A stretch of 64,000 bases of DNA from a virus, in IMG/VR virus record IMGVR_UViG_3300021513_000001, positions 1-64,000 of that record. One strand, given 5' to 3'. Numbering within the stretch: the first letter of the stretch is position 1; every line of letters starts with the position of its first letter. Shown here piece by piece: positions 81 to 32,904 of the stretch. The position numbers and the translations under genes were made by a program. The notes beneath the pieces were generated by a model. That model saw only the letters and a list, made by a program, of their open reading frames with translations, searched no databases and was not told the DNA's origin.

Positions 81-121
81 AATATTGTCGCCTCGTATTC
101 AAAGGCTAAAGCTCCTTGGTT

Positions 122-1220: not shown

Positions 1221-1225
1221 TTTTT

Positions 1226-1627: not shown

Positions 1628-1649
1628 GCAAATCTCTAACTATAATTAA

Positions 1650-2108: not shown

Positions 2109-2123
2109 GACTATTTTCTCTTA

Positions 2124-2330
2124 CTAATTAGGTTGTGTCTCAGCAAAATACGTCCCACAAATAGGGCACTCATACCATAAAACATCTACATCATCATATT
2201 TTAACACCGCATCCGGATGTGCCCAACGGCCTTTACCATCACAAGGTGTTTCTTTGGTACATATTTTTCGTTTATTTTGTTTTATTTTTTTTTTTTCATA
2301 CAAATATTTTATGCAATAATTATGCCACAT
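2124..2330 (-). CDS. small Cys-rich/Zn-ribbon protein; true start uncertain (poly-A tract)
   Basis: WYECPICG, plus C-x5-C and His; an out-of-frame ATG precedes an A12 run at 2285-2296. Confidence 0.5.
   Translation of the reverse strand: MWHNYCIKYLYEKKKIKQNKRKICTKETPCDGKGRWAHPDAVLKYDDVDVLWYECPICGTYFAETQPN
2312..2327 (-). promoter_or_regulatory. sigma54-type promoter TGGCATAATTATTGCA
   Basis: GG-N10-GC; overlaps the stop codon of the upstream GT and points at the Zn-ribbon/SNase/lysis genes. Confidence 0.7.
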
Positions 2331-3222
2331 TCTTTTTTAAAAAATCAAGAATACCGGCAACTCTAAAAGATACATCATGCTCTTTTTTACACCTGTTAGC
2401 TGCATTTACTCCTATTTCTGTTAACAGGTCTGCATTTTTTAAATAATAATTTAATTTTTCTTTTAAATCTTTTTTGTTTTTATATGTTAAAATTTCTTTA
2501 TCTTTTTCAAATACTTTAAAAACCTCATCTCTTTCTCTTGTTATAACCGGAGTAGCACAGGCTGAATACTCAAACATTCTATGTGCTAAAGGTGAAAAAA
2601 AATCCTGTATATCTAAACCTATTTTACTTCTGTTAATTACATTAAGAAATTCACTACCTGTTATTGCTTTATGTGTATAACTTGCACTAAACCATCCCGA
2701 ACCGTAAACCTGTAAATTACAACTTACAGTGTTATTTATATCTTTAACTATTTCAAGGCGTTCCTTTTTATTCTTAAATCTTGGATGTAAACCACACCCA
2801 ATTAAAGAAACATCTATATCTTTTTTTAAATATAAATTTTTGTGATACTTAAAATCACAAGCTGTTTGATTATAGTGTACTGGTATTACTGTTTTATACT
2901 TTTCAAAAGTCTCATAATGATTTGTTACATAAACGTCATAACTTTTAAATCTTTCCGAAGAAAAATAATAAGGATCACTAAAACCAAAACCAATAATTGG
3001 AATTTTAATTTGTTTTTTAATACCATAAGGAAGTACTAAACCAGAATGAGATAACCAAATTTGATCTGGGTTCAATCTATCAATTAAATTTAAAACACTT
3101 ATAATTTTACTTTTATCTACCCAAATAATATCATATCCCTTATTTTTGACTTCTTCATATATAGATCTCTTTGTACCATAAGTATTAAAGGTATATTTAT
3201 CAGTAAAATATAATATTTTCAT
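2320..3222 (-). CDS. CgeB-like GT-B glycosyltransferase
   Basis: [23 protein letters not shown] and [10 protein letters not shown] motifs; start moved to ATG 3222 (ATGA overlap with the upstream stop). Confidence 0.85.
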
Positions 3223-3704
3223 ACACGTTCTCCTATTTTCCTTACTGGATTCCCTGCCCAAATTCCATAATCAGGAATATTTTTTGTAACAACACTTCCG
3301 GCCCCTATAACACACCCATTTCCTATTTTAACACCACCACACACAACAGTATTTGCACCGATCCACACGTCACTACCTATTATAACATGTTTTGGTATAT
3401 TTTTTTGTTTCATTATAAGTTGATTAATTGCTACTCCATGATCTTGTGCATATATATGAACATTTGGACTAAATAAAACATTGTCTCCTATTTCTATTCC
3501 TCCCATACCGTGCATAACACAATAATAACCTATACTTACGTTATTACCTATGTTTATTATTCCTGTACAGGTTCTTATAACACAATTATGCATTATTCTT
3601 ACATTGTTACCAAGTATTATTTTCCCACCGTGTTCTTTAAAACCAACATAAGCATCAGGTGATATATTACAGTTATTGCCTTGAATTAAATTTGCCGTAA
3701 TCAT
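3219..3704 (-). CDS. hexapeptide-repeat (LbH) sugar O/N-acyltransferase
   Basis: IGxN hexapeptide repeats; [32 protein letters not shown]...AGNP. Confidence 0.9.
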
Positions 3705-4396
3705 TTTTTTATGTATAAATTCTCATCTATTTTTTTAAATAATTTGTTTAAAATAGTAACGCCTTCTTTTTTCCATAAACTTATCGAATGTGCAAAATGT
3801 CCAGATGATGGTTTAATTTTTCTACTCACCTCTAAAAATAATTTACCATTTTGTTTAATAGATAAGCATATCCTTTCAAATTCCTTTAAGGGGTTATAAA
3901 CATGTTCTAATACATCTGAACAAATAATTACATCATATTTGTTTTTTGGTAATACAGAATCATGATAAAACACATTGACTTTAAATCCACGTTTTTTAAT
4001 TCTTGCTCTAGCAAATTTTAATAGCGGACCTTTCACATCAAGAATATCTACATCATTTCCATTTTCCAACAAAGCAATAGCGTGTGTACCAACGCCGCTT
4101 CCAAAATCCAAACACTCTTTGTTTGACGTATCATTTATTAGTTTTTTAAGCGTCGCTCCTCTACGCATCACACTTGTAAACATCATAGTTTTTAAATATG
4201 CATCCAAATCTAAATAATTATATTCTTGATACAAAGATAAGAAATCTTTCTCTGTCTCAATAACCCCTTTTTCATTAAATATTCTAATAGAATCTGGTGT
4301 ACAAATACTAAGTTGTTGTATATAATTCAAGGGTTTATTTAATATTTCCGCCAATTCTAAATCCCTCTCTTTTTGTGTTTCTTTTAATATGGCCAT
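3701..4396 (-). CDS. class I SAM-dependent methyltransferase
   Basis: LDFGSGVG motif I; [13 protein letters not shown]. Confidence 0.9.
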
Positions 4397-4399
4397 TAT

Positions 4400-5674
4400 T
4401 TATCCTTTATTAACTTTACCTGTAGCTTGTATCCACTTTCTAAAATATTCAGATTCTTCTTGAAATTCTTCAAGACTTCTATCTCTAATTTTAATGAGGG
4501 GTTTTAATTTATTAACACCATCTGGACCAAAAAAATAAAAATTATAATCATTAAGATCTCTACTAAGAATTTCTATATTATACTTCAATGGGTTATACCA
4601 TACATCACATCCTGGAATTGGAACAAAAGAAGTACATGCAATAATATCATAAGGCACTTCCTGTAAATATTTAATATTAATAGGTACGGTGTGTTTTGTT
4701 TGACCGGGCGTTCTTATCATAAATAATATTCTTGTTTTTAAACCAACCTTAGCACATATTTCTAACGCCCTGACATTATCTTTTGCGGTAGTTTTCTTGT
4801 TTAATATTTTTAAAACATTATCATCAAAACTTTCAACACCAAAAGAAGCCTCAACACATCCAGCATCATACATAATTTTAGCCATATCTTCATCAAATGG
4901 GTTTACTCTACAAGATATTCGCCATACAACATCAAGACTTTTAATTTTTTTACACACACTTTCAACATGTTGGCGACTCGCCGTAAACATGTCGTCTGAA
5001 AACCTAAATTGTGTTATTCCAAAATTATCTATCACTTCACGCATTTCATCATATATTGATTGGGCAGTTCTATATCTTACTTTTCTATATGTGAATTTAG
5101 AAGCACAACAAAAAGCACAAGAAAAAGGACAGCCCCTTGAAGTCAAAATTATTGTACTACCACCCTCACGATAGTTTTTATTAAAGATAAAAATATTTCC
5201 GCCTTGAAAATCTAATAAATGTCTTGCTGGTAAAGGAATAGTATTAAGATCTTTTACAGGTTCCCCCTGATAAACTTGTTGTAATTTGTTTTTCTTTATA
5301 TCCTTAATAATATTTAAAATAGTTATTTCTCCCTCACCCACACAAATAGAATCTACTACTTTAAAATCTACAAACTCTTTCGATATAGTACCTGGACCAC
5401 CAAGAACTACTTTGGCATTGGGATATTTAATTTTTATCAATTTTGAAAACTCATTAGCAACAGGTAACTCAAGACAGGTAGTTGTTATTCCATACATATC
5501 TGCTTCAGAAAGATCTTCTATGGCTGTTTTCTTAGAATAAGAAGAATAATTTTTTATCTCTACGTCTATATCGTTTTGTTCTAATACTGCAGCCAAATAC
5601 ATTAACCCTAAAGGCGCTTGCGCATCGGGTTGGTTTAAAAAATCATGTGGTAAATAAATAAAAACTACTTTCAT
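4400..5674 (-). CDS. B12-binding radical SAM protein (class B methyltransferase-like)
   Basis: PLGLMYLAA/VVLGG cobalamin-binding domain; TSRGCPFSCAFC CxxxCxxC; FSDDMF; FGVES. Confidence 0.9.
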   Translation of the reverse strand: MKVVFIYLPHDFLNQPDAQAPLGLMYLAAVLEQNDIDVEIKNYSSYSKKTAIEDLSEADMYGITTTCLELPVANEFSKLIKIKYPNAKVVLGGPGTISKEFVDFKVVDSICVGEGEITILNIIKDIKKNKLQQVYQGEPVKDLNTIPLPARHLLDFQGGNIFIFNKNYREGGSTIILTSRGCPFSCAFCCASKFTYRKVRYRTAQSIYDEMREVIDNFGITQFRFSDDMFTASRQHVESVCKKIKSLDVVWRISCRVNPFDEDMAKIMYDAGCVEASFGVESFDDNVLKILNKKTTAKDNVRALEICAKVGLKTRILFMIRTPGQTKHTVPINIKYLQEVPYDIIACTSFVPIPGCDVWYNPLKYNIEILSRDLNDYNFYFFGPDGVNKLKPLIKIRDRSLEEFQEESEYFRKWIQATGKVNKG

Positions 5675-5677
5675 GTT

Positions 5678-6448
5678 TTACCTCGCTACTTTTTTAAAAG
5701 GACAAACATTATACAATCTATCTATATCTATATCAAGAACATAATCTTTAAATTTATCATAAACCTGTTGTAATGTAGTATTTTCATTAATCACTAGTGG
5801 TAACTTTTCTTCTCTGTGTACAGACTCAAAGTAATCTCTAAATTTAAAACCATTACCCTTTACCTTAGAAGACAATTCAATCCATATTGAGGGTATATTA
5901 TAAGCATCAGAGACTATGATACCGTGTAAAGAACTCGACGCTATTAACTCACAACTACAAACTTTATCAACAAAAACATTAATATCTTCCTGAATATCTA
6001 TAATTAAAATATCAGAAATTCCTCTAAATTTATTTAAAAATTCAGAATTTTTATCTATAAAATGAGGAATAACCCCCAATTTATATTTTTTCTTAACACT
6101 AACAGGTGTATAAAATCTCGGATAAAGTAAAACTGGATCACCATAAACGTTACAAGTATACCCCTGCTCTTTTAATTTTTTAATAGTAAGTGGCCCCCTT
6201 ACTGCGTAAATTTCCTTTGGTTTATATATAATTTTACTCGATTCTGTAATAAAACCAGGCCCCCATATAATAGAATAAGGATCTGCTCTTTGAAGAATAC
6301 TGCCAACTATTAAATAAACATCTTTTTTTTCAATGTTTTCAAAAGACATACCTACAGCTTTAGGTTTAATTCCTGATATGCATTCAAATAAAATAGGACC
6401 TATTTTGTCCCCCCAATTATTTAATTTACTATGATGTTTAACAAACAT
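5678..6448 (-). CDS. polysaccharide pyruvyl transferase family protein
   Basis: NWGD, GSIL, AVRGPLT, GDP, IPH and SSSLHGIIVSDAYNIP motifs. Confidence 0.9.
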   Translation of the reverse strand: MFVKHHSKLNNWGDKIGPILFECISGIKPKAVGMSFENIEKKDVYLIVGSILQRADPYSIIWGPGFITESSKIIYKPKEIYAVRGPLTIKKLKEQGYTCNVYGDPVLLYPRFYTPVSVKKKYKLGVIPHFIDKNSEFLNKFRGISDILIIDIQEDINVFVDKVCSCELIASSSLHGIIVSDAYNIPSIWIELSSKVKGNGFKFRDYFESVHREEKLPLVINENTTLQQVYDKFKDYVLDIDIDRLYNVCPFKKVAR

Positions 6449-6482
6449 TTCTATGTGTTATATCTTTATTTTATTTTTTTTT

Positions 6483-7115
6483 CTAATACTGTATAAAATT
6501 AAATTTTATTGGCTTTTTTAACCCTTTAAGCTCTAACCATTTTCTACCAATATCTTTAACAATAATATTCTTACCAACTGTTATAATATTTTTCTTAGTA
6601 AATTTTTCTGCAAACCTACTACTCCTCAACTGTACTTCAGGATTCTTACTAACATCTAATTTTCCAGCAAAAACTTTATATAAATCATATTTCCAAACAC
6701 TCGGGCTAAGGGCAAGTTTAGTATACCTAGTAGTATAGGCTCTTAAAATTACCTCCAATGCCCCCGTCTTATCAAACAAATTAAATATGTTATTAATATT
6801 TATTTTTTCAAGTAATACCCAATCATCTTCAAGCTGAAAAATATAAGGTGTTTCTGCGCTAGACCAACACCAATTAACTGCATCTGTAAAATTTGGTTGT
6901 TTAGGCAATCTATAAATTACATTATTAAAATATTTTTTTGCTACTGCTAAAGTATTTTGTTGTAATTTACTATTAGGTACAGGATCTATATTAATATATA
7001 AAATACATTTAGATATATTTATACCTTCTATATTAGTAAAAAAAGATTTATACGTCTGCTCTAATATTTCTGGTCTAGATAACGCTGTTGTCGTAAATGC
7101 CATTTTGTTACACAT
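6483..7115 (-). CDS. GT-A fold glycosyltransferase (GT2-like)
   Basis: N-terminal RPEILEQT; FQLEDDW DxD-type motif; DIGR near the C-terminus. Confidence 0.7.
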   Translation of the reverse strand: MCNKMAFTTTALSRPEILEQTYKSFFTNIEGINISKCILYINIDPVPNSKLQQNTLAVAKKYFNNVIYRLPKQPNFTDAVNWCWSSAETPYIFQLEDDWVLLEKININNIFNLFDKTGALEVILRAYTTRYTKLALSPSVWKYDLYKVFAGKLDVSKNPEVQLRSSRFAEKFTKKNIITVGKNIIVKDIGRKWLELKGLKKPIKFNFIQY

Positions 7116-8047
7116 TACATCTGCTCAATACATTTAATAAATTTTTGCATATTTGTCTTTCTATTTCCTATTTTATTAACAATAAGTTTTTGCATATTAT
7201 TAATTAACGACCAATCAGGATTTTCTATCAATTTTACTGCATTATCTAAATTACCAAATTTATATATCATAGCTGTATCACCAAAGGCATAATCTAATAC
7301 CATACCATTTGTCTTTATGTTATTACAAACAATTAAACAACCACATAATGCAGCCTCCATTGCTACATTAAAAAGACCTTCAAGTTCAGTAGGGGCAAAC
7401 CATATGTGACATGAACTGTACAAATCAACTAGTTGTTCGTGTGTAGGAGAACAAACAAAATAATCAAGAAAAGAATCTTTACGCATCTCTGTACCAAACC
7501 CTACATATTCATAATTTTTAGACCCTAACGCTTCGGCCAATTTAATAAAATCTACCCATCTTTTTGTGGGTTTTTTTTGATACAAACACCCAATTCTTAT
7601 TTTGTTTTTTGGTCTAAAATTTCTATCTTCCCACTGTTCGATATCTACTCCTTGGTGGATAACTACAGATTCGACACCAAGTTTTTTTAATTTTCTTTGT
7701 AATCCATATGAATTTGTTATATTAAACAGCCCAGAATTATAACCTGCAATTAATTCTTGTTCTTTCATTACCCAAGTCTCAAAACCTCTAATATAATAGG
7801 CTTTTTTTGGTACATTGGCTTGTAATGTGCTTTGCACTGTCGTACACGCTGTTGCTACTATGACATCCAAATTTTCTGGTATATAATTAATAACAGACTT
7901 ATGCTCAAACCACGTAAAATTGTCTACAGTTGCTACTATATCACATTTGTGGCCTAAATCTTCTAAAACTTTAGCACACATAATAGTTGTTTTCGAGCCG
8001 CCGCTATTTCCAAGTCCGCTATTTAAACAATTAAACGCCAAGTACAT
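7115..8047 (-). CDS. GT4-like glycosyltransferase
   Basis: SGGSK N-terminal motif; EGLFNVAMEAALCG (E-x7-E). Confidence 0.85.
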   Translation of the reverse strand: MYLAFNCLNSGLGNSGGSKTTIMCAKVLEDLGHKCDIVATVDNFTWFEHKSVINYIPENLDVIVATACTTVQSTLQANVPKKAYYIRGFETWVMKEQELIAGYNSGLFNITNSYGLQRKLKKLGVESVVIHQGVDIEQWEDRNFRPKNKIRIGCLYQKKPTKRWVDFIKLAEALGSKNYEYVGFGTEMRKDSFLDYFVCSPTHEQLVDLYSSCHIWFAPTELEGLFNVAMEAALCGCLIVCNNIKTNGMVLDYAFGDTAMIYKFGNLDNAVKLIENPDWSLINNMQKLIVNKIGNRKTNMQKFIKCIEQM

Positions 8048-9029
8048 TTATTTTTTCCCTTAAAAATTTAGCAGCTATTTCCAAAGAAAGATTTTCTTTA
8101 TAATACTCTCTTGGATTATATTTATTTAAATTATCAAGAACATATTGTACCGCTGTCCAAAAATTATCTTTAGTAACCAACTCGCCTGTAGCCCACCGAC
8201 TTCTCGGATTAACTAGAGAGTTTATATATTTATCCCTCCAAAATCTTACTGTATCCAATACTACTATTGGTAACCCACAGGCCAACATTTCAGCAATAAC
8301 GCGTGGACAACTGTCTATTTCAGAATCAACAGCAATAATACCCATTTTACATTTAGCTATGTGTTTTGGCATTTCTGATTTTAATACTCTATAAGATGTT
8401 ACGTTATTCGGGTATTTAAAATTACGTGGGTTATTTCCAAGATTAAGTAATGTAAACCGCGGTGGTAAGGTATTATATACAAAAGCATGTCCTTTAAAGT
8501 TTTGACTCCCGTTAGCTGGAAAACAAATATCATATTCTTTTTTTATTTCAGGATATGGATAAAATAAATTATCTGGGGCCGGTTTTATAAATAGACTGCT
8601 GGGTATTCGTGGAAATCTTTGTTTACATATTTTTAATTGTTCAATAGAATCTTGTAAAATTAAATCATAATCATAAAATCCTTGACATGGCAAATATCTT
8701 CTTCCAGCGCCATAGCGTATTTTAAAAGAAGTGGGGAATTGTTTCAATATGCTATGATATTCTTTGAAACCGCCACGACAAAAAATAACATCAGGAATAA
8801 AAACACTTTTATAGGTTTGAAAATTAGGAATCCACCTCTCCGTGAAATTAAAGGTAAATTTTTTTTCACGATTCCCGCCCCAATACCAAAGTTCTGCCTT
8901 ATCTCCTTTTTTTAATATAGAAAAAATCAATTGTGTCCAAACATCATCACAGTCTTCAATTTTATCAAATACGATTTCTTGCGGATCTCTATCTTGAGGA
9001 ACCTGGCCTCTTAGCATAAGAAAATTCAT
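8031..9029 (-). CDS. GT-B fold glycosyltransferase (GT4-like)
   Basis: KGH; DSCPRVIAEMLACGLPIVV. Confidence 0.8.
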   Translation of the reverse strand: MNFLMLRGQVPQDRDPQEIVFDKIEDCDDVWTQLIFSILKKGDKAELWYWGGNREKKFTFNFTERWIPNFQTYKSVFIPDVIFCRGGFKEYHSILKQFPTSFKIRYGAGRRYLPCQGFYDYDLILQDSIEQLKICKQRFPRIPSSLFIKPAPDNLFYPYPEIKKEYDICFPANGSQNFKGHAFVYNTLPPRFTLLNLGNNPRNFKYPNNVTSYRVLKSEMPKHIAKCKMGIIAVDSEIDSCPRVIAEMLACGLPIVVLDTVRFWRDKYINSLVNPRSRWATGELVTKDNFWTAVQYVLDNLNKYNPREYYKENLSLEIAAKFLREKINVLGV

Positions 9030-9103
9030 TTATATTTCTTCCAATCTACTAAAAAATTTTCTAACTTGCGTTTTTATATAATCTAACATGACAAATTCTC
9101 ATA

Positions 9104-9979
9104 CTAAATTATTTCTTTAACAACATTAACTATTGTTTGTGGATCTATTTCTCTACATTTCCAAATTTTACAATTTTTCCAACCACGATTACCCTGACAC
9201 GGTTGGCATTTCAAATCATTTCTTTTAATAACGGTTGAATATTTGTGAAACCTCAAATCAAAATTTTTCTTTATACTAGTTGCTGTAAAAATTACTATAT
9301 TAGGTATCTCTAAAGCATTAGCACAGTGATACATGCCACTATCATTTGAAATTAGTAACTTACTATTCTTTATTACTCCCAAAGAATCTAACAAAGATAA
9401 TCCAGTCTCATCGTATGTTCCTTTAACATACTCTTGTTTAGAACCAATAGAACATATTTTATATTTTTTATTTAATAGCTTTACTACTTTTTCATAATAA
9501 GGGTAACTTTTTATACTCCAATCAGCGCTACCGTGCGGATTGTAACCATTTGCTATTACTATGTCGTACTGTCTGTCTACTTTGTTATATAAACAATTAC
9601 CGTGCCAAATTAAATCTCTTTCTTTGACTCCCAAATCTCTCGCAATTTGCATATATGTATCTACTTCAGAGATATCCATACTTAAAGGATAAATACCTGC
9701 TAATAATTTCATTCCAATATTTAAAAAAAGTTTAACATGTCTTTGAGTCCAATATGTAGACACCATTCCTATATAATTATTAGGATTAATGTGATTAGCT
9801 TGATTACCAACATACCACTCATTAACATAAGGAATCACTTTAGGAATGAAAAAATTACCAAATACGTGATAATAATCAATATTATACCCTAAAACTTCTT
9901 TTATAGTACGAAGACATGGAATAAGTTGACAACAATTTCCTATTCCTTCGGCTGATAAAAATAATAATTTTTTATTCAT
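9104..9979 (-). CDS. GT9 (heptosyltransferase-like) glycosyltransferase
   Basis: GIGN; ISNDSGMYHCANALEIPNIVIF; C-terminal CQPC...C...C. Confidence 0.85.
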   Translation of the reverse strand: MNKKLLFLSAEGIGNCCQLIPCLRTIKEVLGYNIDYYHVFGNFFIPKVIPYVNEWYVGNQANHINPNNYIGMVSTYWTQRHVKLFLNIGMKLLAGIYPLSMDISEVDTYMQIARDLGVKERDLIWHGNCLYNKVDRQYDIVIANGYNPHGSADWSIKSYPYYEKVVKLLNKKYKICSIGSKQEYVKGTYDETGLSLLDSLGVIKNSKLLISNDSGMYHCANALEIPNIVIFTATSIKKNFDLRFHKYSTVIKRNDLKCQPCQGNRGWKNCKIWKCREIDPQTIVNVVKEII

Positions 9980-9982
9980 ATT

Positions 9983-10165
9983 TTATTTTATAATATCATT
10001 TATTTCATTAGTTATTTTTTCTAAATCTTTATCAAACAGTTTATTAAATATTTTCTTTGACATATTTTTTTTCTTGATATAATCAAGAGCTATAGATGAA
10101 GATTTAATTTTAAGTATTGTCTTTATTTTTTTTTCTATCATCTGTAAAATCCGACCAACACACAC
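9983..10165 (-). CDS. hypothetical protein (start uncertain)
   Basis: Fills a gap in the operon; overlaps the upstream ORF. Confidence 0.35.
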   Translation of the reverse strand: MCVGRILQMIEKKIKTILKIKSSSIALDYIKKKNMSKKIFNKLFDKDLEKITNEINDIIK

Positions 10166-10448
10166 CAGTTATCAACCCATCGTCTTCAATTATAAAACCC
10201 AGCCTCTCATCACATAAACAATCAGTTATAGTAGCAATTATAGACAGAGTACTAATGCCTACGTCATCATAATTAAAAACAAGATCCCCATCATTATCAC
10301 GTATAAAATAATAGGCTATACCCAATTTTTGCATATCTTTTTCTGCACTTAATAGTTTATTTTTATCCAATGCAGCATAGAATTTGTTAATGTCTTCATA
10401 ATAAATTGGTTCTGATAATTTAATCATTTTATTAATTATATTCAACAC
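10110..10448 (-). CDS. hypothetical protein
   Basis: 112-aa ORF in operon orientation. Confidence 0.6.
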   Translation of the reverse strand: MLNIINKMIKLSEPIYYEDINKFYAALDKNKLLSAEKDMQKLGIAYYFIRDNDGDLVFNYDDVGISTLSIIATITDCLCDERLGFIIEDDGLITGVCWSDFTDDRKKNKDNT

Positions 10449-10480
10449 TTCTTGTTTTCTTTTTTCAATTCTATACCCCT

Positions 10481-11263
10481 TTAATGGTAGTTTTTAATTA
10501 TTAAATGTTGATTTCCGCTATCTCCACTTATCCTACCAGAATGAATTTTAAACATATATTTCTTAAAATAAGAATCTACAATGTACCCACTATAAAGTCT
10601 TCTTATTAGTTCGCTATCGCCTATAATCATTAGACATTTGTTTTTAGTAGATTTAAATAAATCAGCTAACCTTTCTTGGTGTTCTTTACCAAACTGGCAA
10701 TAACCATAATTTTTAAATACAGAATCATATGGTGGATCTAAAAAAACAAAATTGTTTTCATCATTATATTCATTAAAAATTTTTTCAAAAGAAGCTAGTT
10801 TTACATCGGTTCGTTTTAATAATTCAGTGTATCTTGAGTCTTTTATTAATTCGTAATTTACTGTTTTATAACGCCCCCACGGTATATTAAATTTACCACT
10901 TTTATTATACCTTAGCATGCCTCTAAAAGCTGTTTTACGTAAATAAAAAAATCTACTTGCTTCTTCAATTTTAGTTTTAACATCCATTTCGTCTCTTACA
11001 AAATAATAAAAAGCCTCATCTATATCCCATTTACAAACCGTTCTATATATTTCAAGAGCGTTTCCTTCCTTAATTTGTTGATAAAAATTTATTAATTCCT
11101 CGTGCACATCAGCAATGACATTTTTTTCAAAATTTAAATCAAAAAAGACAGAACCGCCCCCAACAAAAGGTTCTATATACCTATCAAAAGTTTTTGGGTA
11201 ATGGCGACAAAAGCGAGCTATTTCTCTACTTTTGCCACCACTCCACTTAATTATCGGGTTCAA
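10481..11263 (-). CDS. DNA adenine methyltransferase (Dam/D12 class)
   Basis: KWSGGK, EPFVGGGSV, RYNKSGKFNIPWG and FLDPPY motifs. Confidence 0.92.
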   Translation of the reverse strand: MNPIIKWSGGKSREIARFCRHYPKTFDRYIEPFVGGGSVFFDLNFEKNVIADVHEELINFYQQIKEGNALEIYRTVCKWDIDEAFYYFVRDEMDVKTKIEEASRFFYLRKTAFRGMLRYNKSGKFNIPWGRYKTVNYELIKDSRYTELLKRTDVKLASFEKIFNEYNDENNFVFLDPPYDSVFKNYGYCQFGKEHQERLADLFKSTKNKCLMIIGDSELIRRLYSGYIVDSYFKKYMFKIHSGRISGDSGNQHLIIKNYH

Positions 11264-11280
11264 ATTAACAATCCTAAATG

Positions 11281-12105
11281 CTAAATAGCATATTTAATTT
11301 TTTGTTCTGATTTATCTTTGTTAAGTATACTAAAATATGTTTGTAGTAACTCATCACCCAAAGTAGCATGAAAAGCTTCCCACTCTTCTTTAGTTACATT
11401 TATATTAAAAAACTTAAAGAAATCAACATATCCAACAATATACTGCTTTTTAATAGCTTTAAAATCAGAATTTAATTTTACTATATCATCAACATGTGGA
11501 TATCTTAAAGATACAAAACTAACCTTTGTATTAATATTATTTTTATTATAAAACTTTTTTAAAGCAATACTTAAAAGATCTAATTTTTCTATTACTTTAG
11601 CTGTCTTTTCTGTATCTAAATTAAAATTATATTTAAGTTCACTAATAAAATAAGTATTATCTTTGCGTATTGCAACATCTAATTGAACAGTTCTATCTAA
11701 AAAACCTTTTATTAACGGACTAATTTCACTAGAAACATCTTCGTATTTAGACGTAAGATATTTTCTAATAGCAGATTCTACAGCATTACCAACTCTGATA
11801 AGCAATGTTTGTTTTGGAAAAAACGGAAGAGATGAAAACAAAATTTCATTTAGAGAACCTTGTTCTTTATTTGCATTTTTAATAATATTTTCTATTATTT
11901 TTTCAGATTTTACTTTATTTCTTACTTCGCTAATAATACAATTTTTAAGCTCATCGAATGATTCTTTTGGATCTTCAATATATATATCACCTATTGAACT
12001 TTCAGATTGTTGTTCTACTACCAACCTATATAATCCAACCATTCTAGAACTTAAACCCTTTAACCTTGTAAATTCATTCATAAAATCACGACCTTCAGTT
12101 TTCAT
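11281..12105 (-). CDS. putative type II restriction endonuclease (PD-(D/E)XK)
   Basis: GNAVE...LD...ISELK motif; adjacent to the MTase; start moved to ATG 12105, which has an AAGGAG SD. Confidence 0.6.
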   Translation of the reverse strand: MKTEGRDFMNEFTRLKGLSSRMVGLYRLVVEQQSESSIGDIYIEDPKESFDELKNCIISEVRNKVKSEKIIENIIKNANKEQGSLNEILFSSLPFFPKQTLLIRVGNAVESAIRKYLTSKYEDVSSEISPLIKGFLDRTVQLDVAIRKDNTYFISELKYNFNLDTEKTAKVIEKLDLLSIALKKFYNKNNINTKVSFVSLRYPHVDDIVKLNSDFKAIKKQYIVGYVDFFKFFNINVTKEEWEAFHATLGDELLQTYFSILNKDKSEQKIKYAI

Positions 12106-12170
12106 AATAAAACTCCTTTTAGAAATAGTATTTAAAACATACCCAAAGGGGTAAAACGCCAATTTAACAA

Positions 12171-13055
12171 TTATTTTTTAGCAAATCTTAAACTTCCTGT
12201 CCAATTCTCTAATTTTGGGCTAAAAACTTTGTAATCGTTATATTGCGGAGTAGCAGAAGCCTTATAAAGTTTATTGGCATCTAAAATAATTTCACGTAAA
12301 TTCTCTAAACGACTATAAAAAGATTTGCCTGGAATAACACCACCCGGCCTATTTTTTCCAGTAAACCCTATGTGCTGAGAGCGGTTAACTTCCGGCATAA
12401 TAACATAACCATCCTCTTGTATATGATTTATATCAACACATCTATTTATCAATCCGGCTTGCTCTACATGAGCAAGTTTCTGATATTTATATAATTTATT
12501 GCCTTTATACTGCTTATCGAGATGTGCTATATATCCATATGTATCATTATAATATCTTGGTAAAGAATTAGGATAAACATAATCCAAATAAAACTTTTTA
12601 AATATTGTCGTACAAATGGCTGCATAATGATACCCTTTATAAAGTACATGGACATCTCCATTATCATCTTTATTAAACGAAGATATTATACTTGCTTTTT
12701 CTATTTCAGGCATATTTAATATTATATCTAAATATTTAAAAAAAGTTTTATGAGGCAACACGTCATCTTCTATGTATAAAACATAATCACTTGTCAAATT
12801 AAAAGCGTCTTTAAATCCCTCTAATATATTAGTAGTTAGTCCTAATTTTGTTTGTCTAAAAATACAATAACTTTTTGCTGGGTACTGTTTTATAATATCT
12901 ATACATATTGGGTCTGCGCCATGTTCTATAATAAACAAAGTAAGTAAGCTGTCTGAAAACTTATAATAATTTCTTGCTTCAATTTCTGCTTCTATGCTAA
13001 GATAAAGCATTTCTGGCCGATTATATACTGGTCGCATAAGTATTTGTGTAGCCAC
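12171..13055 (-). CDS. GT-A fold glycosyltransferase
   Basis: YNRPE, YIEDDV and RSQHIG motifs. Confidence 0.75.
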   Translation of the reverse strand: MATQILMRPVYNRPEMLYLSIEAEIEARNYYKFSDSLLTLFIIEHGADPICIDIIKQYPAKSYCIFRQTKLGLTTNILEGFKDAFNLTSDYVLYIEDDVLPHKTFFKYLDIILNMPEIEKASIISSFNKDDNGDVHVLYKGYHYAAICTTIFKKFYLDYVYPNSLPRYYNDTYGYIAHLDKQYKGNKLYKYQKLAHVEQAGLINRCVDINHIQEDGYVIMPEVNRSQHIGFTGKNRPGGVIPGKSFYSRLENLREIILDANKLYKASATPQYNDYKVFSPKLENWTGSLRFAKK

Positions 13056-13093
13056 TTTAACTACTCCTAAAAACTGTATATTTTTATAAAACT

Positions 13094-13276
13094 CTATATT
13101 TTATCTAGTTTACGTTTCCAATTATACATAGAGGCTTTGGGTTTAAACTCAAAAACTGTTTTACAATGTACACACATTATTGAAAAATTATCACAAACTT
13201 TCCAAACATCTCCTTTACAGTTTGGACAAACTAAAAAAGTTGCAACAACTTCCGGATGTCTCCTTATTATACTCAT
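13094..13276 (-). CDS. small zinc-ribbon protein
   Basis: CPNC...CVHC; ATG 13276 preferred because it follows the stop of the upstream small ORF. Confidence 0.6.
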   Translation of the reverse strand: MSIIRRHPEVVATFLVCPNCKGDVWKVCDNFSIMCVHCKTVFEFKPKASMYNWKRKLDKI

Positions 13277-13280
13277 TGTA

Positions 13281-13436
13281 TCAATCTCCGGTTGTTTTAA
13301 AAAAAGCCTTAGCAAACCTACGAATTACTTCTAACTCATATTGACTCAAAACATTACCAATACCTTCAATCCAATCTCCTATTTCTATATTATCAAAATC
13401 TTCAATAGTTGCCTTATTCATATAAATTTTTTTCAT
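13281..13436 (-). CDS. small hypothetical protein (51 aa, not in the ORF track)
   Basis: MKKIYMNKATIEDFDNIEIGDWIEGIGNVLSQYELEVIRRFAKAFFKTTGD fills the gap between 13276 and 13439. Confidence 0.55.
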   Translation of the reverse strand: MKKIYMNKATIEDFDNIEIGDWIEGIGNVLSQYELEVIRRFAKAFFKTTGD

Positions 13437-13438
13437 AA

Positions 13439-14572
13439 CTATTTTTTAGCTCCTACAACTTTTTTTAAAGTTTCAATATATAACTGGCCTATAATCTGAT
13501 AATTAAAATATTTAATTACATGTTCTTTAGCAGATAAACCCGTTTTTTTAGCCTCGTTTTTATGTTCATATATATACTTCATTATATCAGAAGCTTGTTT
13601 AACATCAGCTTGTGCCCAACACTGATCTGAAACATACCAAGGAGTATTAATCATTCCAAACACAGGAGTTAAAACATAATCAATTAAATAACTATTATTT
13701 TTATTTAAAAATTGATTTACTCCGCCATATCCAGTTACTATAGAAGGATTCCCAACCGCAGATGCTTCAGCAATAGGTAATCCAAAACCTTCTCCTCTGT
13801 TCAAACTAACAAAACAATCACCAAACTTATGTAATTCTAATATTTCTCTATTAGATAATATATCTAATATTAAATACACTCTAGCATAATTTTTTCCTTT
13901 TGGAAGTATTATACTTTCCTTTATTTTTTTAATTGTTTGTATAACAATATTTTGTTCCTGTTCTGAATAACCATACCTATAAACCTTAAGAACCAACGCT
14001 ACGTTGTCTTCACCACTAAAAGCATGCCAATATGCTCTAAGAAGAGAAACTGGGTCTTTCTTTTCAACCATCTGAAACACAGAATAAAAAATATAATCAT
14101 CTTTTTGTGGGCCATTCATAATAAATTTACCAATGCCATTAAACTGCGTGGTATCTATAATGTGAGGAACACAATATATAGGAACAGTCACCCCACTATT
14201 ACTAAATACTTCAACATTCCACTTACACGGAACAAGTATAGCATCCATGCTATTACAATAATTTATCCAATCATGTGGTATCTTATCAGTCTCCCATACA
14301 GTATATCCTATATTTATTTTTCCTTCTTCTCTATATAAAGGATAGTGTTCTGGAGTTAAATGTATTAAATTAACATCATAATCTATTCGCCTGTTTATAT
14401 AACTTGATAAATAATCTCCAAGTTTTCCAAGATCTGGCCGTTGTTGTTCAAAACTAACAGGTGATAATGTAAGATCAACACCTTGTTCTATCAAAGCTTT
14501 TATATAATGTCTAGCACAAGAACCATAACCACTACCGTCTAGTATAGAACCCCAATATTTTATTTTTAACAT
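13439..14572 (-). CDS. GT4 glycosyltransferase
   Basis: SGYG, TVWET and GEGFGLPIAEA motifs. Confidence 0.9.
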   Translation of the reverse strand: MLKIKYWGSILDGSGYGSCARHYIKALIEQGVDLTLSPVSFEQQRPDLGKLGDYLSSYINRRIDYDVNLIHLTPEHYPLYREEGKINIGYTVWETDKIPHDWINYCNSMDAILVPCKWNVEVFSNSGVTVPIYCVPHIIDTTQFNGIGKFIMNGPQKDDYIFYSVFQMVEKKDPVSLLRAYWHAFSGEDNVALVLKVYRYGYSEQEQNIVIQTIKKIKESIILPKGKNYARVYLILDILSNREILELHKFGDCFVSLNRGEGFGLPIAEASAVGNPSIVTGYGGVNQFLNKNNSYLIDYVLTPVFGMINTPWYVSDQCWAQADVKQASDIMKYIYEHKNEAKKTGLSAKEHVIKYFNYQIIGQLYIETLKKVVGAKK

Positions 14573-14581
14573 AATTAAATC

Positions 14582-14657
14582 CGATGCTTTTTTGTTAACT
14601 TACGTTAACAAATGCACCACTCTCCTTTTTCAGAGTGATGGGGGCATCTCCCAAAAC
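14582..14657 (-). promoter_or_regulatory. conserved SD-hairpin leader element, copy 1
   Basis: 43-nt core 14585-14627 is 40/43 identical to copy 3 and 38/43 to copy 2; AAGGAG, then stem-loop, then 9 nt, then ATG 14572. Confidence 0.8.
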
Positions 14658-14678
14658 TCGCAATAAAATGTTGCGAGT
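14656..14678 (-). terminator. possible intrinsic terminator/attenuator hairpin
   Basis: Perfect 8-bp inverted repeat ACTCGCAA/TTGCGAGT followed by only a short U run on the minus strand. Confidence 0.35.
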
Positions 14679-14796
14679 GCCATTAATGTCTCTATCGATC
14701 TTGTTTTTTTTAAAATGTTAATGTATCAGCAACAGTTAATTAGCCTTTATAAATTTCTAATGATACACCCACGATCGAAGGCCGGGAATTACGTGA

Positions 14797-15024
14797 CTAA
14801 ATTTGTTCATCATCAAGTTCGTTTATTCCACATATTTTGACCATATCCCATAACAAAACATAATCCTTTTTTTCTAAATAATGACAATAACCATAAGAAC
14901 AACCATCGTCATCTTCACCATACTCCCAATATGGACACGGTTTTATTTTGTATTTACCGTCTTTAAATCCAAGAGATGTATAACAATAATCACCATAAGG
15001 TATTTCTGCAATTTTTTTACTCAT
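14797..15024 (-). CDS. small Cys-rich hypothetical protein
   Basis: IPYGDYCY...CPYW...YCHYL...ICGIN; AAGGA SD upstream. Confidence 0.7.
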   Translation of the reverse strand: MSKKIAEIPYGDYCYTSLGFKDGKYKIKPCPYWEYGEDDDGCSYGYCHYLEKKDYVLLWDMVKICGINELDDEQI

Positions 15025-15060
15025 ATAAAAATCCTTTTAATATAACTTTATTTTATTGTA

Positions 15061-15076
15061 CGCAATTTCTATGCCA
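15061..15076 (-). promoter_or_regulatory. sigma54-type promoter TGGCATAGAAATTGCG
   Basis: GG-N10-GC; intergenic, upstream of the ORF starting at 15024. Confidence 0.7.
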
Positions 15077-15104
15077 AATCTTGAAAACTTGTATCCCCAA
15101 AATA

Positions 15105-17561
15105 TTAAATACTCACAGATTTAAACGGTTTAATTACTTCAGTATTTGTTACTGTAAACTGTGATTTAAATATATTAGATGCTTCATTAAATAAATTAAT
15201 CCATTTAGGTACAATACTACGTTCCCAGGTTAAATTATTTATAACATACTTATAAGCCGCCTCTGCTTTTTCTTTAGCCTCTTCTGGATTATTTATAACA
15301 TGATTCATAACTTTAACAAGATGATCTATATCAACTAAAGGTCTTAAAACCTCATTATCGTTTGGTAAAATAGTATATAAATTTTCATTTGTTCCTGAAT
15401 CTACCAAATAAGCTATATCATCATTTATTAATTCAGGAATCATTGTATTATTTGGCATAATAACGGGTTTTTTTGTTGCCATACCTTCAATCCAAGAGTT
15501 ATGAACTATCATATTTTCTGCTACAAAATTATTAGTATTTTCGACTTGAATATCTACAAGAGTTCCCCTATACGGAACTTTATTAATTGTTTTGATAGGC
15601 AAAAGTAAATATTTTTTATTTTGACTACATTTTTCGCCATTATATACACGATCAGAAATAATGTTAGGTTCTATATTAAACATTTTTAATAATTTTCTTT
15701 TTGAAATACCAGAAACATTTACCTTATATTCAACCCTACTAGTTCTCACAGAACTTAGTATTCCTAGCTTTGCTAAAATTAATCTAAGACCGTAAGCTAC
15801 GTGTTTTGAAGTAGTCGAAAAAGTCATCTCATAATCTGTTTTACAATAACAACCATCACCAATAAACTCACCATTAACAAATTCGATTAAATACTCTAAC
15901 GGTTGATTCAATAAAATAGATGGTATTTTTTTATTTCTAGCCCCATGATCAAACAAATTATAAAATAAATTTGCAACAACAGACGAATAAAATCTAATAG
16001 TTTGACAACCATATTTATTGCCACGACTTTTGTTATCTGTATAATAAACATTTAACCCAAAAACCTTTTTCATTTCATTCGCTACAAATTCAATTATATT
16101 TGTTTCTTTTTTATTAAAACTAAATAAAATACTATCTTTTTTAGAAGCACTAACGCACCCTTCAGCCAAATATAAACCAAATAAACGCATAAGTGTTTTT
16201 GTTATTTTTATTTTTTTAGGTATAAAAATACCAGCATTTTCAATAAAATTAGAAGTTAGCCTAAACATGTCCCCTGTTTCTTCTAAATTTAATATTTGTC
16301 TTGCGTTTAAAGTTTGTGTAACTATATCATATATATCTAATTCGCTTTTTGTTTCAAAATGTTTCTTTGGAAATAATAAATTATCTCCTATTTTTAAATT
16401 CTCAGCTTTTTTCCATATATATTCTCCATTTTCAAAAACTTTAAAACCATGCTCTGGAGAAGTTTTTAATGGTATATTAGATAACCACGTAGTTATTTCA
16501 TAAAGATCACCATCAAAATCTCTCGACATTATTGCTCGAACTTTATTATAAGTTCCGTCATCAGACAAAACTTTATCTTGTATTGTAATATCTCCAATCT
16601 CTTTAAGCCCTTCTTCCGTATATATTGTTGAATGATTACAAATACATAAACCAAAACCTTCTCCTAACGCAGTACTAACAACACAATCACAAGAATTATA
16701 CAAAATATTAACAACTGGAACAGGATATCCCTGATTTGGGCCAAAATTTTGTGGAAATACTACATCTGTTTTAGTACTTAAACCTAAAACTTCACAGACT
16801 TTATCTAATCGCCACCCCTGATCTCTTACTGCCATGTGACAATAAGCTAAAACATTCGAATTAGTTTCTTTTACTTGTTTATATGCTCTTATAAATCTTG
16901 GAATATCTTTTCTTTGTTGATTTCTATTTAAATTACAAAAAATAAACTTATCTGCTTGAGGACCAAAGTATCTTTTCCTAAAATCTACTGCTTCTTGATC
17001 CTGTCTTGGGTAAAAATCTTTATCATTAACCCCGTGATAAATAACTCTAATATTTTTTTTAGTCGCAGTATCACCAAGAGCCAATAATGTAGCATCTTTA
17101 GCAAACTGAGTATAAGCTACAGGAATATCAACCGAAGTTACTGCCTCTGCCCAAGACTTTTTAATAATAGAGTCACATGGATAATAACACAAACTAACAA
17201 ATTTCTTTCCTTGCGCTTTTAATTGCGGAATATATTCTGTAAGAAACTGCAAAATAAAAGAATCTTGCAAAAAAAACAAGATATCAAACTCCATATGTTT
17301 AGCCATTTCCATAAACTTTTTTCTTCCATAAGGATCATGCTCTGAATTTAAACCGGCAGGCCAAATATTAAACACCTGTGTTAATGGTGGAGCAGGTGAT
17401 CCCCAGTAGTTAATTGCAAAAATATCAATATCATATTTACCTGTTTCATATAGCCCTGTAAAAATATTCTTAGCCACTGTTCCAAAACCAGTCGCCACAG
17501 TAGGGCTATCGCAATAAGCCAAAATTTTTAATTTCTTTTGTTGTCTTGGTTGATTAAACAT
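15105..17561 (-). CDS. GT4 glycosyltransferase containing an intein
   Basis: TGFG, NRNQQRKD and GEGFGL/SWIEGMA motifs, split by a 383-aa intein; spliced product would be 435 aa. Confidence 0.9.
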   Translation of the reverse strand: MFNQPRQQKKLKILAYCDSPTVATGFGTVAKNIFTGLYETGKYDIDIFAINYWGSPAPPLTQVFNIWPAGLNSEHDPYGRKKFMEMAKHMEFDILFFLQDSFILQFLTEYIPQLKAQGKKFVSLCYYPCDSIIKKSWAEAVTSVDIPVAYTQFAKDATLLALGDTATKKNIRVIYHGVNDKDFYPRQDQEAVDFRKRYFGPQADKFIFCNLNRNQQRKDIPRFIRAYKQVKETNSNVLAYCHMAVRDQGWRLDKVCEVLGLSTKTDVVFPQNFGPNQGYPVPVVNILYNSCDCVVSTALGEGFGLCICNHSTIYTEEGLKEIGDITIQDKVLSDDGTYNKVRAIMSRDFDGDLYEITTWLSNIPLKTSPEHGFKVFENGEYIWKKAENLKIGDNLLFPKKHFETKSELDIYDIVTQTLNARQILNLEETGDMFRLTSNFIENAGIFIPKKIKITKTLMRLFGLYLAEGCVSASKKDSILFSFNKKETNIIEFVANEMKKVFGLNVYYTDNKSRGNKYGCQTIRFYSSVVANLFYNLFDHGARNKKIPSILLNQPLEYLIEFVNGEFIGDGCYCKTDYEMTFSTTSKHVAYGLRLILAKLGILSSVRTSRVEYKVNVSGISKRKLLKMFNIEPNIISDRVYNGEKCSQNKKYLLLPIKTINKVPYRGTLVDIQVENTNNFVAENMIVHNSWIEGMATKKPVIMPNNTMIPELINDDIAYLVDSGTNENLYTILPNDNEVLRPLVDIDHLVKVMNHVINNPEEAKEKAEAAYKYVINNLTWERSIVPKWINLFNEASNIFKSQFTVTNTEVIKPFKSVSI
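15498..16646 (-). mobile_element. intein with LAGLIDADG homing endonuclease
   Basis: Starts at Cys (CICNHSTI); block B TSPEH; LFGLYLAEG and VNGEFIGDG helices; ends VHN before extein Ser+1. Confidence 0.92.
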
Positions 17562-32546: not shown

Positions 32547-32557
32547 ATACTAGCAAA

Positions 32558-32607: not shown

Positions 32608-32617
32608 AAAATTTTTA

Positions 32618-32854: not shown

Positions 32855-32904
32855 ACTTTCTGTTTTATTATAGTAAGCACTCTAATATTGGAGATAATAA
32901 TACC

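Follow-up and report, generated by a model that had tools for sequence, protein, structure and literature searches.

The window analysed here comprises bases 1 to 64,000 of the 114,332-bp IMG/VR record IMGVR_UViG_3300021513_000001 (G000; CheckV completeness 54%), and between positions 2320 and 17561 it carries a cluster of glycan genes made up of 17 open reading frames (ORFs), all on the minus strand. We are confident that this region is one copy of a hypervariable glycan island found throughout a lineage of phages, in which a conserved pair of GT4-type glycosyltransferase (GT) genes, here termed GT4a and GT4b, is combined with a swappable cargo and no export genes. A preliminary description of the same DNA had presented the cluster as a cytoplasmic pathway making a decorated glycan on virion proteins or on DNA. 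The observation itself is real, with the corrections given below, and the interpretation is plausible but unproven. Overlooked at that stage were the location in the replication module, the conservation across the lineage of the upstream GT4 pair only, and the swappable nature of the rest. The wider finding is a lineage-level, intein-ridden and hypervariable glycan island, of which no description was found in the literature searched.

A conserved GT4 pair with swappable cargo

Seventy-seven distinct viral loci were retrieved with an alignment of 28 of the best GT4b homologs, and the ORFs of the record were run against these loci by tblastn (identities are medians of the best high-scoring segment pair). 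GT4b was present in all 77 loci at 45% identity, and GT4a in 70 at 52%. Genes upstream of the pair recurred as well, namely those for a primase (68 loci), a nuclease (67), DnaB (66), DnaJ (50), SSB (46) and RecA (36). At 30 to 39%, the median identities of the nuclease, primase, DnaB, RecA, SSB, PolA and clamp loader lay below those of the GT4 pair. The G+C content of the loci ranges from 29 to 45%.

When 1,709 ORFs from these loci were clustered, the gene order proved fixed upstream, with the GT4 pair coming after the PD-(D/E)XK nuclease gene in nearly all relatives, and the region downstream proved a mosaic of recurring modules. The order GT-A, GT9, GT-B, GT-B seen in this window was found again in three loci (L016, L036 and L057). 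Downstream clusters with Pfam assignments included a methyltransferase (c13, 34 loci), a GFO/IDH/MocA oxidoreductase (24), a left-handed beta-helix (LbH) protein (22), a UDP-GlcNAc 2-epimerase (14) and a DegT aminotransferase (12), together with several GT2 families, a GT17-like family, an epimerase, a GT-D-fold GT, two sulfotransferases and a Dam-like methylase. The GT-D-fold GT and the two sulfotransferases (L024:12512-17068) occur in the islands of three relatives, implying sulfated glycans there. The smallest islands consist of GT4a, GT4b and a KdsC-like phosphatase gene (L013), or of these three and two methyltransferase genes (L019, L020, L037 and L050).

GT4b had 644 homologs at E<=1e-5, of which the best 120 all scored E<=1e-109, were nearly all 371 to 380 aa long and lay on contigs of up to 327 kb. 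No close homolog was detected by tblastn among 50,697 GenBank phage records; the best identity was 27%, and the 161 phage records matched included none from Escherichia, Acinetobacter or Rhizobium phages. A search of 185,579 species genomes likewise turned up no member of the lineage. These held only GT4 relatives of 22 to 38% identity, lacking the phage synteny and scattered over metagenome-assembled genomes of many phyla, so that a host could not be named. No integrase or lysogeny gene turned up among the ORFs scanned with Pfam and PHROG, in a search that was not systematic and in which most structural ORFs had no match.

One relative, G002, is a contig of 268,764 bp (CheckV completeness 100%) with a terminase match; it and this phage are collinear over a stretch that begins with the tail genes and takes in the replication module. 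It encodes at 148970-171973 a 7,667-aa homolog of the 5,563-aa tape-measure-like protein of this phage. The preliminary description had allowed for the contig being a cellular chromosome with an ordinary lipopolysaccharide (LPS) or capsule locus. This was not so: the contig is an IMG/VR record and collinear with a CheckV-complete relative that has a terminase match. Of 10 ORFs thought to be structural that were compared with PHROG, nine had no match and one matched a homing endonuclease; the viral nature of the contig rests on the IMG/VR record, the collinearity with G002 and the terminase match of G002.

The exchange of cargo is well illustrated by a sister phage, G001 (IMGVR_UViG_3300033143_006241, 52 kb), whose PolA is 77% identical to that of this phage. 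Several genes are retained in G001: an intein-free GT4a (its two exteins match at 76% and 71% identity), the 75-aa ORF that follows it (79%), GT4b (79%), the restriction-endonuclease-like gene (63%), the Dam gene (80%), the 112-aa ORF (74%) and the KdsC-like gene (71%). Neither the GT-A gene nor window positions 966-9979 find a match there. In their place stand about 19.4 kb of other glycan genes, encoding a GT47-like protein, a HAD-nucleotidyltransferase fusion, an epimerase, a GT2, a UDP-GlcNAc 2-epimerase, a GT32-like protein, Gmd, a GDP-fucose-synthase-like protein and a PseB/CapD-like dehydratase.

Both conserved enzymes are retaining GT-B proteins of the CAZy GT4 type. Their Pfam scores (Table 1) exceed the Glycos_transf_1 cut-off of 26.4 bits and the EX7E motif is present; in GT4b it reads EGFGLPIAE, with E261, G262 and G264 invariant in 28 family members. 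Among proteins of solved structure, the GT4b family comes closest to chlorovirus B736L (profile E 2.6e-14, covering profile residues 113-370 only), and the 11 PDB sequences matched by the family profile (E<=0.01) also include TreT, BshA and glycogen synthase-type GT4s. GtfA and GtfB form the initiation pair of serine-rich-repeat adhesin O-glycosylation, and an analogy with the GT4 pair was considered. Homology was rejected, as the GtfA and GtfB chains were not among these 11 matches and no serine-rich repeat protein was found.

GT4a is interrupted by an intein of 383 aa that the preliminary description had missed and that Pfam intein domains reveal (Intein_splicing 1.2e-15, LAGLIDADG_3 3.1e-11). 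It extends from C306 to N688, with Ser689 as the +1 residue, and includes a LAGLIDADG endonuclease; the junctions read ...ALGEGFGL / C306...VHN688 / S689 (WIEGMATKKPVI). The insertion splits the EX7E motif between its two glutamates (EGFGL/SWIEGMA). GT4a of G001 is an intein-free allele, aligning contiguously to exteins 1-306 and 689-818. Judged by these motifs, the insert is a canonical class 1 intein with a LAGLIDADG domain and an H687-N688 terminus.

Similar insertions recur in the lineage. Of 149 GT4 ORFs in the 77 loci, 22 are at least 560 aa long; 21 of these have an in-frame insert of about 300 to 390 aa that splits the GT alignment, and the remaining one looks like a tandem fusion. Intein domains were verified for GT4a of this window alone, the other inserts being judged from length and alignment. 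At least five insertion sites are used: in GT4a at about residue 296/297 (six or seven loci plus this window), and in GT4b at about residues 13, 168, 270-277 and 310-330, with two inserts in three of the GT4b ORFs. The pattern in G001 is the reverse of that in this window, GT4a being free and GT4b, a 729-aa ORF (L011:14011-16200), carrying an intein-like insert near residue 13. Six ORFs of the GT4 cluster resemble the PolA sequence, itself intein-bearing. Repeated in-frame inserts are as expected for conserved, needed genes. No description of inteins in phage GTs was found in the literature searched.

The island lies among replication genes. Upstream of it are genes for a PD-(D/E)XK nuclease, DnaJ, SSB, a Toprim primase, DnaB, a ligase, RecA and the sliding clamp. 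A second contig (IMGVR_UViG_3300005265_000474), 99.3% identical, reaches 5.8 kb past the start of the window, into genes for a clamp loader, an intein-bearing PolA and a dUTPase. Replication genes thus stand on both sides of the cluster, which places it within their module. The family A DNA polymerase in this extension (L002:8322-12461, about 1.1 to 5.2 kb past the window start) contains an intein with a LAGLIDADG endonuclease and is flanked by the clamp loader and dUTPase genes.

Membrane and export functions were sought in the whole 114-kb record and in G002, and neither contains an ORF with more than two hydrophobic segments. Two single hydrophobic segments were detected in cluster proteins, both inside a Rossmann C-domain. 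The priming transferase family Bac_transf (PF02397) was absent from all four records scanned, while the control was positive in 10 of 14 genomes. The earlier statements that the cluster enzymes have no membrane anchors and that no flippase, polymerase or priming transferase is present were thus upheld, the second now extending to the whole record and to the complete relative. A polysaccharide locus of the Wzx/Wzy- or ABC-dependent type was rejected, there being no polytopic membrane protein and no PF02397 match in the 114-kb record or in G002. A serotype-conversion cassette (gtrABC, membrane O-acetyltransferase or Wzy) was rejected too: neither the record nor G002 has polytopic ORFs, the acetyltransferase is of the soluble LbH type, and the 185,579 genomes hold no integrated member. 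The non-priming GTs of ordinary undecaprenyl-phosphate pathways are also soluble, however, so that missing anchors alone do not exclude a host carrier or host export. Of the cytoplasmic pathway proposed earlier, the viral setting and the lack of anchors and export genes stand; the argument from anchors is by itself insufficient.

Genes of the island and its surroundings

The features of the island are collected in Table 1. Genes overlap at four of 17 neighbour junctions, and a further two are separated by 3 nt.

Table 1. Predicted features of the glycan island, ordered along the window.
Feature	Position	Strand	Evidence
KdsC-type HAD phosphatase (Kdo-8-P or nonulosonate-9-P phosphatase family)	122..625	-	PDB 1j8d KdsC 1.6e-13; outside 2320-17561
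CgeB-like GT (Glyco_trans_1_2)	2320..3261	-	Pfam 1.7e-23, 83.6 bits
LbH O-acetyltransferase (maltose acetyltransferase/WbbJ/WcaF-like)	3219..3704	-	Pfam Hexapep 3.9e-19; NCBIfam all sub-threshold
Class I SAM-dependent methyltransferase	3701..4396	-	Pfam Methyltransf_23/12/11
B12-binding (class B) radical SAM enzyme	4400..5674	-	PF02310 40 bits; PF04055 83.7 bits; CxxxCxxC (CPFSCAFC) at residue 182
Polysaccharide pyruvyl transferase	5678..6448	-	PF04230 PS_pyruv_trans 1.1e-11, 45.6 bits against cut-off 25.3, profile 60-279 of 280
210-aa probable small GT-A-type transferase (u210)	6483..7115	-	Pfam GT2 E 0.023; hhalign E ~1e-3 to three GT-A/GT2 clusters
GT-B (GT4-like)	7115..8047	-	phrog_2170 8.5e-11; Glycos_transf_1 21.8 bits (under cut-off); hhalign to GT4b family 1.8e-5
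Possible GT-B (weak)	8031..9029	-	Pfam Glyco_trans_1_4 E 9e-4, under cut-off; hhalign to GT4b family E 0.004
GT9, heptosyltransferase-like	9104..9979	-	Pfam Glyco_transf_9 1e-8, 35.3 bits; NCBIfam heptosyltransferase I/II sub-threshold
112-aa ORF, travels with the Dam and endonuclease-like genes	10110..10448	-	No Pfam/PHROG match; 74% identity in G001
Dam-type (D12 class) N6-adenine DNA methyltransferase	10481..11263	-	MethyltransfD12 6.6e-47; 80% identity in G001
Restriction-endonuclease-like (HinfI/EcoO109I-like fold)	11281..12162	-	Atlas features 0.95, TM 0.53; no Pfam match; 63% identity in G001
GT-A-fold GT candidate (GNT-I/MGAT2/GT2-like)	12171..13055	-	No Pfam match; Atlas; single EDD at residue 96
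73-aa ORF	13094..13315	-	Weak zinc-ribbon-like matches, sub-threshold Pfam only
GT4b, second conserved GT4	13439..14572	-	Pfam 29.8 bits; phrog_2170 1.2e-21; EX7E at residue 261
75-aa ORF in the slot between both GT4 genes	14797..15024	-	No Pfam match; 79% identity in G001; 1/77 loci
GT4a, conserved GT4 with intein	15105..17561	-	Pfam Glycos_transf_1 28.7 bits; phrog_2170 3e-42; Intein_splicing and LAGLIDADG_3 inside

The preliminary inventory was essentially right. Of its eight or so GTs, four pass Pfam cut-offs and two have secondary support, the other two being weak, and all four tailoring enzymes it had named (pyruvyl transferase, LbH acyltransferase, SAM methyltransferase and B12 radical SAM enzyme) are borne out by Pfam. 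Apart from the weak GTs and the intein, it failed on three genes inside the cluster that are not glycan genes. The gene at 10481-11263 encodes a Dam-type DNA methyltransferase, and the product of its neighbour at 11281-12162 is restriction-endonuclease-like according to Atlas and not a GT-A; the third is the 112-aa ORF.

Among the cargo GTs, the GT-A candidate (Atlas feature score 0.98; structure TM 0.67-0.81 to viral GT-A clusters) matched Streptomyces phage genes annotated as glycosyltransferase by tblastn (8e-8). Its homologs occur in 22 of the 77 loci and are absent from G001. The GT9 recurs in seven loci at a median identity of 56%, and the GT-B at 7115-8047 in five. Homologs of the weak GT-B at 8031-9029 (five loci, 64%) always stand beside those of the GT9 and of the 7115-8047 gene. 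The u210 family comprises 59 homologs, one of them with a PF00535 match, and E96-D97-D98-W99 is invariant in the 27 that were aligned. The CgeB-like GT has tblastn homologs in two loci, and a related cluster with the same Pfam family is found in seven.

Among the tailoring enzymes, the LbH protein has tblastn homologs in 18 loci. The best solved relative of the radical SAM enzyme is the sugar diol-dehydratase AprD4 (1.4e-22); no NCBIfam model reached its equivalog cut-off, and the enzyme may act in sugar tailoring. When the radical SAM protein was scanned against viral contigs, its sole match was the near-identical contig. In the 77 loci, tblastn found no homologs of the pyruvyl transferase, the radical SAM enzyme, the methyltransferase at 3701-4396 or u210. 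No PDB match was obtained for u210, the 8031-9029 protein or the pyruvyl transferase.

The protein encoded at 11281-12162 looks like a type II restriction endonuclease, and the conserved three-gene insert at 10110-12162 may constitute a restriction-modification-like or anti-restriction module. Dam-like genes were found in the island of six of the 77 loci, with Pfam run on one of them. In L016 a multi-copy 'CapR-homology' gene (mobile c14) occupies the place that the Dam module has in this window.

The KdsC-like gene marks the downstream end of the island. It is present in 16 of the 77 loci, in G001 and in G002, and stands directly before the clamp loader and PolA genes. The near-identical contig lacks about 196 bp of this region (window 97-294 against L002:7161-7162) and has an ORF of 119 aa where this window has one of 167 aa. 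Between the glycan genes and the KdsC-like gene sits a lysis-like cassette (window 966-2108) encoding a small one-transmembrane protein, a phage lysozyme and a staphylococcal-nuclease-like SNase with an N-terminal anchor; it is absent from G001.

The window as a whole has a G+C content of 25 to 33%, with nearly every gene on the minus strand. The only sizeable plus-strand genes (window 27957-33792) encode a 1,529-aa protein, which at 21.5% is the richest in Ser/Thr within the record, and a papain-family cysteine protease. A sigma-70 promoter scan returned 118 sites against 117.9 expected, and terminator-like sites numbered 11 against 4.2 expected, none of them clearly bounding the cluster. Operon boundaries could not be drawn from these scans.

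The acceptor of the glycan

The conservation of the GT4 pair across loci of 29 to 45% G+C suggests an acceptor that is phage-borne. We propose that GT4a and GT4b would start a glycan on an acceptor constant across the lineage, and that the cargo enzymes would extend and decorate it in the cytoplasm with host nucleotide sugars, yielding a phage-specific oligosaccharide. The acceptor would most likely be a virion protein, giving particles with a strain-specific sugar coat. A virion protein is the acceptor that we favour, albeit tentatively and at somewhat less than even probability. In Streptomyces phage Satis, homologous GTs lie directly upstream of the tail genes, which counts for a protein acceptor. 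So does the kinship of GT4b with B736L, which comes from a chlorovirus, a group that glycosylates its capsid proteins in the cytoplasm (PMC9614988). The GT4a and GT4b families are acidic, with median pI values of 6.1 and 5.8 compared with 9.05 for T4 beta-GT, and this is a mild argument for protein and against DNA. Furthermore, we infer that a chain from up to eight GTs on each thymine would outweigh the DNA in a genome of 71% A+T.

Several observations weigh against a virion protein. No Ser/Thr-rich repeat tracts were found in the record (the richest 40-aa window has 40% Ser+Thr) and no candidate acceptor protein was identified, in a record that is 54% complete. The island stands in the replication module and not by the capsid or tail genes, and it contains the Dam and nuclease-like genes. 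For B736L, the available text of PMC9614988 gives the acceptor and role as not known. The clusters of phages DLP3 and RB69, proven to arabinosylate DNA, contain GT4-like GTs, a ThyA homolog and a HAD phosphatase (PMC13326640, available part). Finally, slot content between the two GT4 genes was scored in the 61 of 77 loci where both are visible, and 34 have a gene of thymidylate-synthase (Thy) type there. The 77 loci together hold 13 copies of a divergent ThyA, and in 11 of the 61 loci such a copy occupies the slot.

The slot is empty in 24 of the 61 loci. It contains a family termed c23 in 13, the divergent ThyA (c22) in 11, ThyX in seven, a canonical ThyA with genes for dihydrofolate reductase (DHFR) and a NUDIX protein in three, and other genes in a further three. 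The 13 divergent ThyA sequences were aligned with E. coli ThyA, T4 gp42, SPO1 gp29 and the methanogen-type enzyme of PhiF1. All 13 keep C146, R166, S167, D169, N177, Y94 and Y209, and have Asp at position 143, Leu at 147 and Phe at 165. Position 143 is likewise Asp in the hydroxymethylases T4 gp42 and SPO1 gp29, Glu in PhiF1 and Leu in the canonical copy of L037. The available part of Lee et al. (PMC13326640) correlates residue L143 with whether a hydroxymethyl or a methyl product is made, assigns the choice of substrate to N177 and treats D169N as the mark of 5-hydroxy-dCMP synthases. Judged on such residues, the divergent copies look like dUMP hydroxymethylases. They have no adjoining DHFR gene, unlike the canonical ThyA.

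The c23 proteins (L038:9292-9948 and 12 other loci) are about 200 aa long with invariant GHNKFL, WWQ..TY, S.ST.H and QR..H motifs. An assignment to ThyX was not supported: the Pfam Thy1 matches are sub-threshold (E 0.002 and 0.029), the hhalign E of 0.07 is not significant, and there is no PDB match. As a lead only, c23 may be a very divergent relative of flavin-dependent thymidylate synthase.

These slot genes raise the possibility of DNA hypermodification, in which GT4a and GT4b would glycosylate a hydroxylated pyrimidine, for example 5-hydroxymethyluracil made by a thymidylate-synthase relative, and the cargo would diversify the sugar against host nucleases. The setting is suitable, the island lying between the nuclease, primase and helicase genes on one side and those for the clamp loader, PolA and dUTPase on the other; in T4, the beta-gt gene adjoins gene 42 (GenBank annotation). 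Phage GT-Bs akin to BshA, MshA and PglH place hexose, HexNAc, heptose and Kdo on 5-hydroxymethylcytosine (5hmC), up to trisaccharides, and their genes adjoin polymerase, helicase and clamp genes (bioRxiv 10.1101/2023.12.21.572611, available part). With regard to heptose and Kdo, this island has a GT9 and a KdsC-like phosphatase.

Nevertheless, we consider DNA a rather unlikely acceptor. Profiles for c22, c23, ThyX and ThyA found nothing in the 54%-complete record, the 5.8-kb extension or G001, and neither PF00303 nor PF12851 (Tet_JBP) matched in the record. G002, although complete, has ThyX only, with no ThyA or Tet_JBP match. Five relatives of 211 to 269 kb yielded a single ThyA match, canonical and in the slot, and no Tet_JBP match in a search run with no positive control. 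Ordinary dTMP-making enzymes (canonical ThyA with DHFR, or ThyX) fill the slot in 10 of the 61 loci, and 24 slots are empty. As the PhiF1 thymidylate synthase also lacks Leu143, the marks at this position are not specific. Additionally, GT4b has no similarity to the GTs of T-even phages, RB69, DLP3 or RL38J1 (E<=1e-3) or to the PDB chains of T4 alpha- and beta-GT. Known DNA glycans, as far as the sources at hand report, have at most three sugars, whereas the islands here encode six to eight or more GTs as well as sulfo- and pyruvyl transferases. A bolder form of the proposal, that the GT4 pair glycosylates DNA, that the slot enzymes (the L143D ThyA and c23) make the acceptor base, and that the cargo builds pyruvylated, acetylated, methylated and sulfated DNA glycans larger than any known, is in our estimation unlikely. 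If true, it would mean a glycodiverse DNA coat that evolves like an O-antigen.

Cyanophages carry large glycan gene clusters of unknown role, which lends some weight to remodelling of the host envelope. Here the soluble enzymes would act on lipid-linked intermediates of the host (undecaprenyl-pyrophosphate-linked glycans or lipid A core) that the host primes, flips and ligates; the purpose might be, for example, to block superinfection or to keep progeny from sticking to debris. The solubility of ordinary non-priming GTs is compatible with such a scheme. The GT9, WbbJ/WcaF-like LbH protein, pyruvyl transferase and KdsC belong to families of LPS, capsule and S-layer loci, relatives add a WbpB/E/D-like trio, a UDP-GlcNAc 2-epimerase and Gmd, and the mosaic variation among close relatives resembles that of serotypes. 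Conversely, a GT4 pair that is 45 to 52% identical across loci of such different G+C, presumably from different hosts, is better accounted for by a phage-borne acceptor. The complete relative has no membrane-associated component whatsoever, and the want of lysogeny genes in the scanned ORFs and of lineage members in species genomes also counts against this proposal. We thus regard host envelope remodelling as having only a small chance of being correct.

Least probable of all, in our view, is a free glycoside or oligosaccharide, made by a GT4 and a HAD phosphatase as in the synthesis of sucrose-phosphate or mannosylfructose-phosphate, or a glycan on a different acceptor, for instance RNA or a replication protein. 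It would suit the smallest islands, with only GT4a, GT4b and the HAD phosphatase or these plus two methyltransferases, and the TreT, BshA and glycogen synthase-type GT4s among the PDB profile matches. Against it, a KdsC-type phosphatase points to a role in making sugar precursors, islands with many GTs fit a polymeric glycan better, and no positive evidence was obtained.

Whichever acceptor is used, the glycan that these phages make seems to be under strong diversifying selection. Three forms of glycosylation encoded by phages are known: on virion proteins in a few mycobacteriophages, on DNA bases with one to three sugars, and in serotype conversion. Here a lineage of very large uncultured phages keeps a GT4 pair as conserved as its best-conserved structural proteins, and close relatives swap full glycan modules as bacteria swap O-antigen genes, yet no export step is encoded. 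Islands of two to more than 12 genes form a natural series for assessing what each module contributes, and the GT4 pair provides defined enzymes to test.

Comparison with known systems

The mycobacteriophages described in 2023 by Freeman and colleagues reportedly use soluble GTs, and in some cases methyltransferases, to place O-glycans on their own capsid and tail proteins in the cytoplasm, with no export genes. The island shares with those clusters its phage-encoded soluble GTs, a methyltransferase and the lack of export genes. They have one to four GTs, compared with about eight here plus pyruvyl, acetyl, methyl and radical SAM enzymes. The island further differs in lying in the replication module and in being led by a conserved, intein-bearing GT4 pair. 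The fibril glycan clusters of Megavirinae also combine virus-encoded GTs with sugar-tailoring enzymes and vary between clades. In these respects they resemble the island, although they belong to viruses of eukaryotes.

The phage clusters for DNA glycosylation (those of T4, the MT/5mYOX- or ThyS-linked ones of Pyle et al., and those of DLP3 and RB69, which serve 5-hydroxycytosine arabinosylation; PMC13326640) are similar, as far as the available parts of these sources go, in combining GT-B or GT4-like enzymes with GT-A enzymes akin to those for LPS and teichoic acid. They are similar too in their site among polymerase, helicase and clamp genes, in their HAD phosphatase and sugar-nucleotide genes and, for part of the lineage, in a Thy relative. 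They differ in that searches of this contig and of G002 gave no base-hydroxylating enzyme, in that the island has far more GTs and decorations than known DNA glycans need, and in the lack of sequence similarity to proven DNA GTs.

Among solved structures, the closest likeness is to B736L of chlorovirus NY-2A and A546L of PBCV-1 (PDB 3OY2 and 3OY7), virus-encoded soluble GT-B enzymes of the GT4 type that include the best solved relative of GT4b. In the available text of PMC9614988, chlorovirus capsid proteins are glycosylated in the cytoplasm by the virus's own machinery, and mimivirus glyco-genes are organised in clusters. In contrast to GT4b, B736L comes from a virus of a eukaryote, and it binds GDP-mannose (PMC9614988).

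The moraphages (Perez-Hernandez et al. 2025, PMC12619734) are, like this lineage, large uncultured aquatic phages with shared GTs and DnaJ/DnaK chaperones. Four GT orthogroups are widely shared among them, and glycosylation of DNA, serotype or virion was suggested. In the part of that report at hand, no tape measure gene was found, as opposed to the 5,563-aa one here, and island structure, inteins and a thymidylate-synthase link do not appear.

By layout, the nearest cultured analogue is Flavobacterium phage vB_FspM_immuto (MW353176, 160 kb). Its GT is only 24.5% identical to GT4b and different genes lie upstream of its nuclease. It nonetheless has the same succession of a PD-(D/E)XK nuclease, a small ORF, two GTs and about a dozen glycan genes, annotated in GenBank as a GT2, two WecE-type aminotransferases, a methyltransferase, a mannosyltransferase, an acetyltransferase, an epimerase and another GT.

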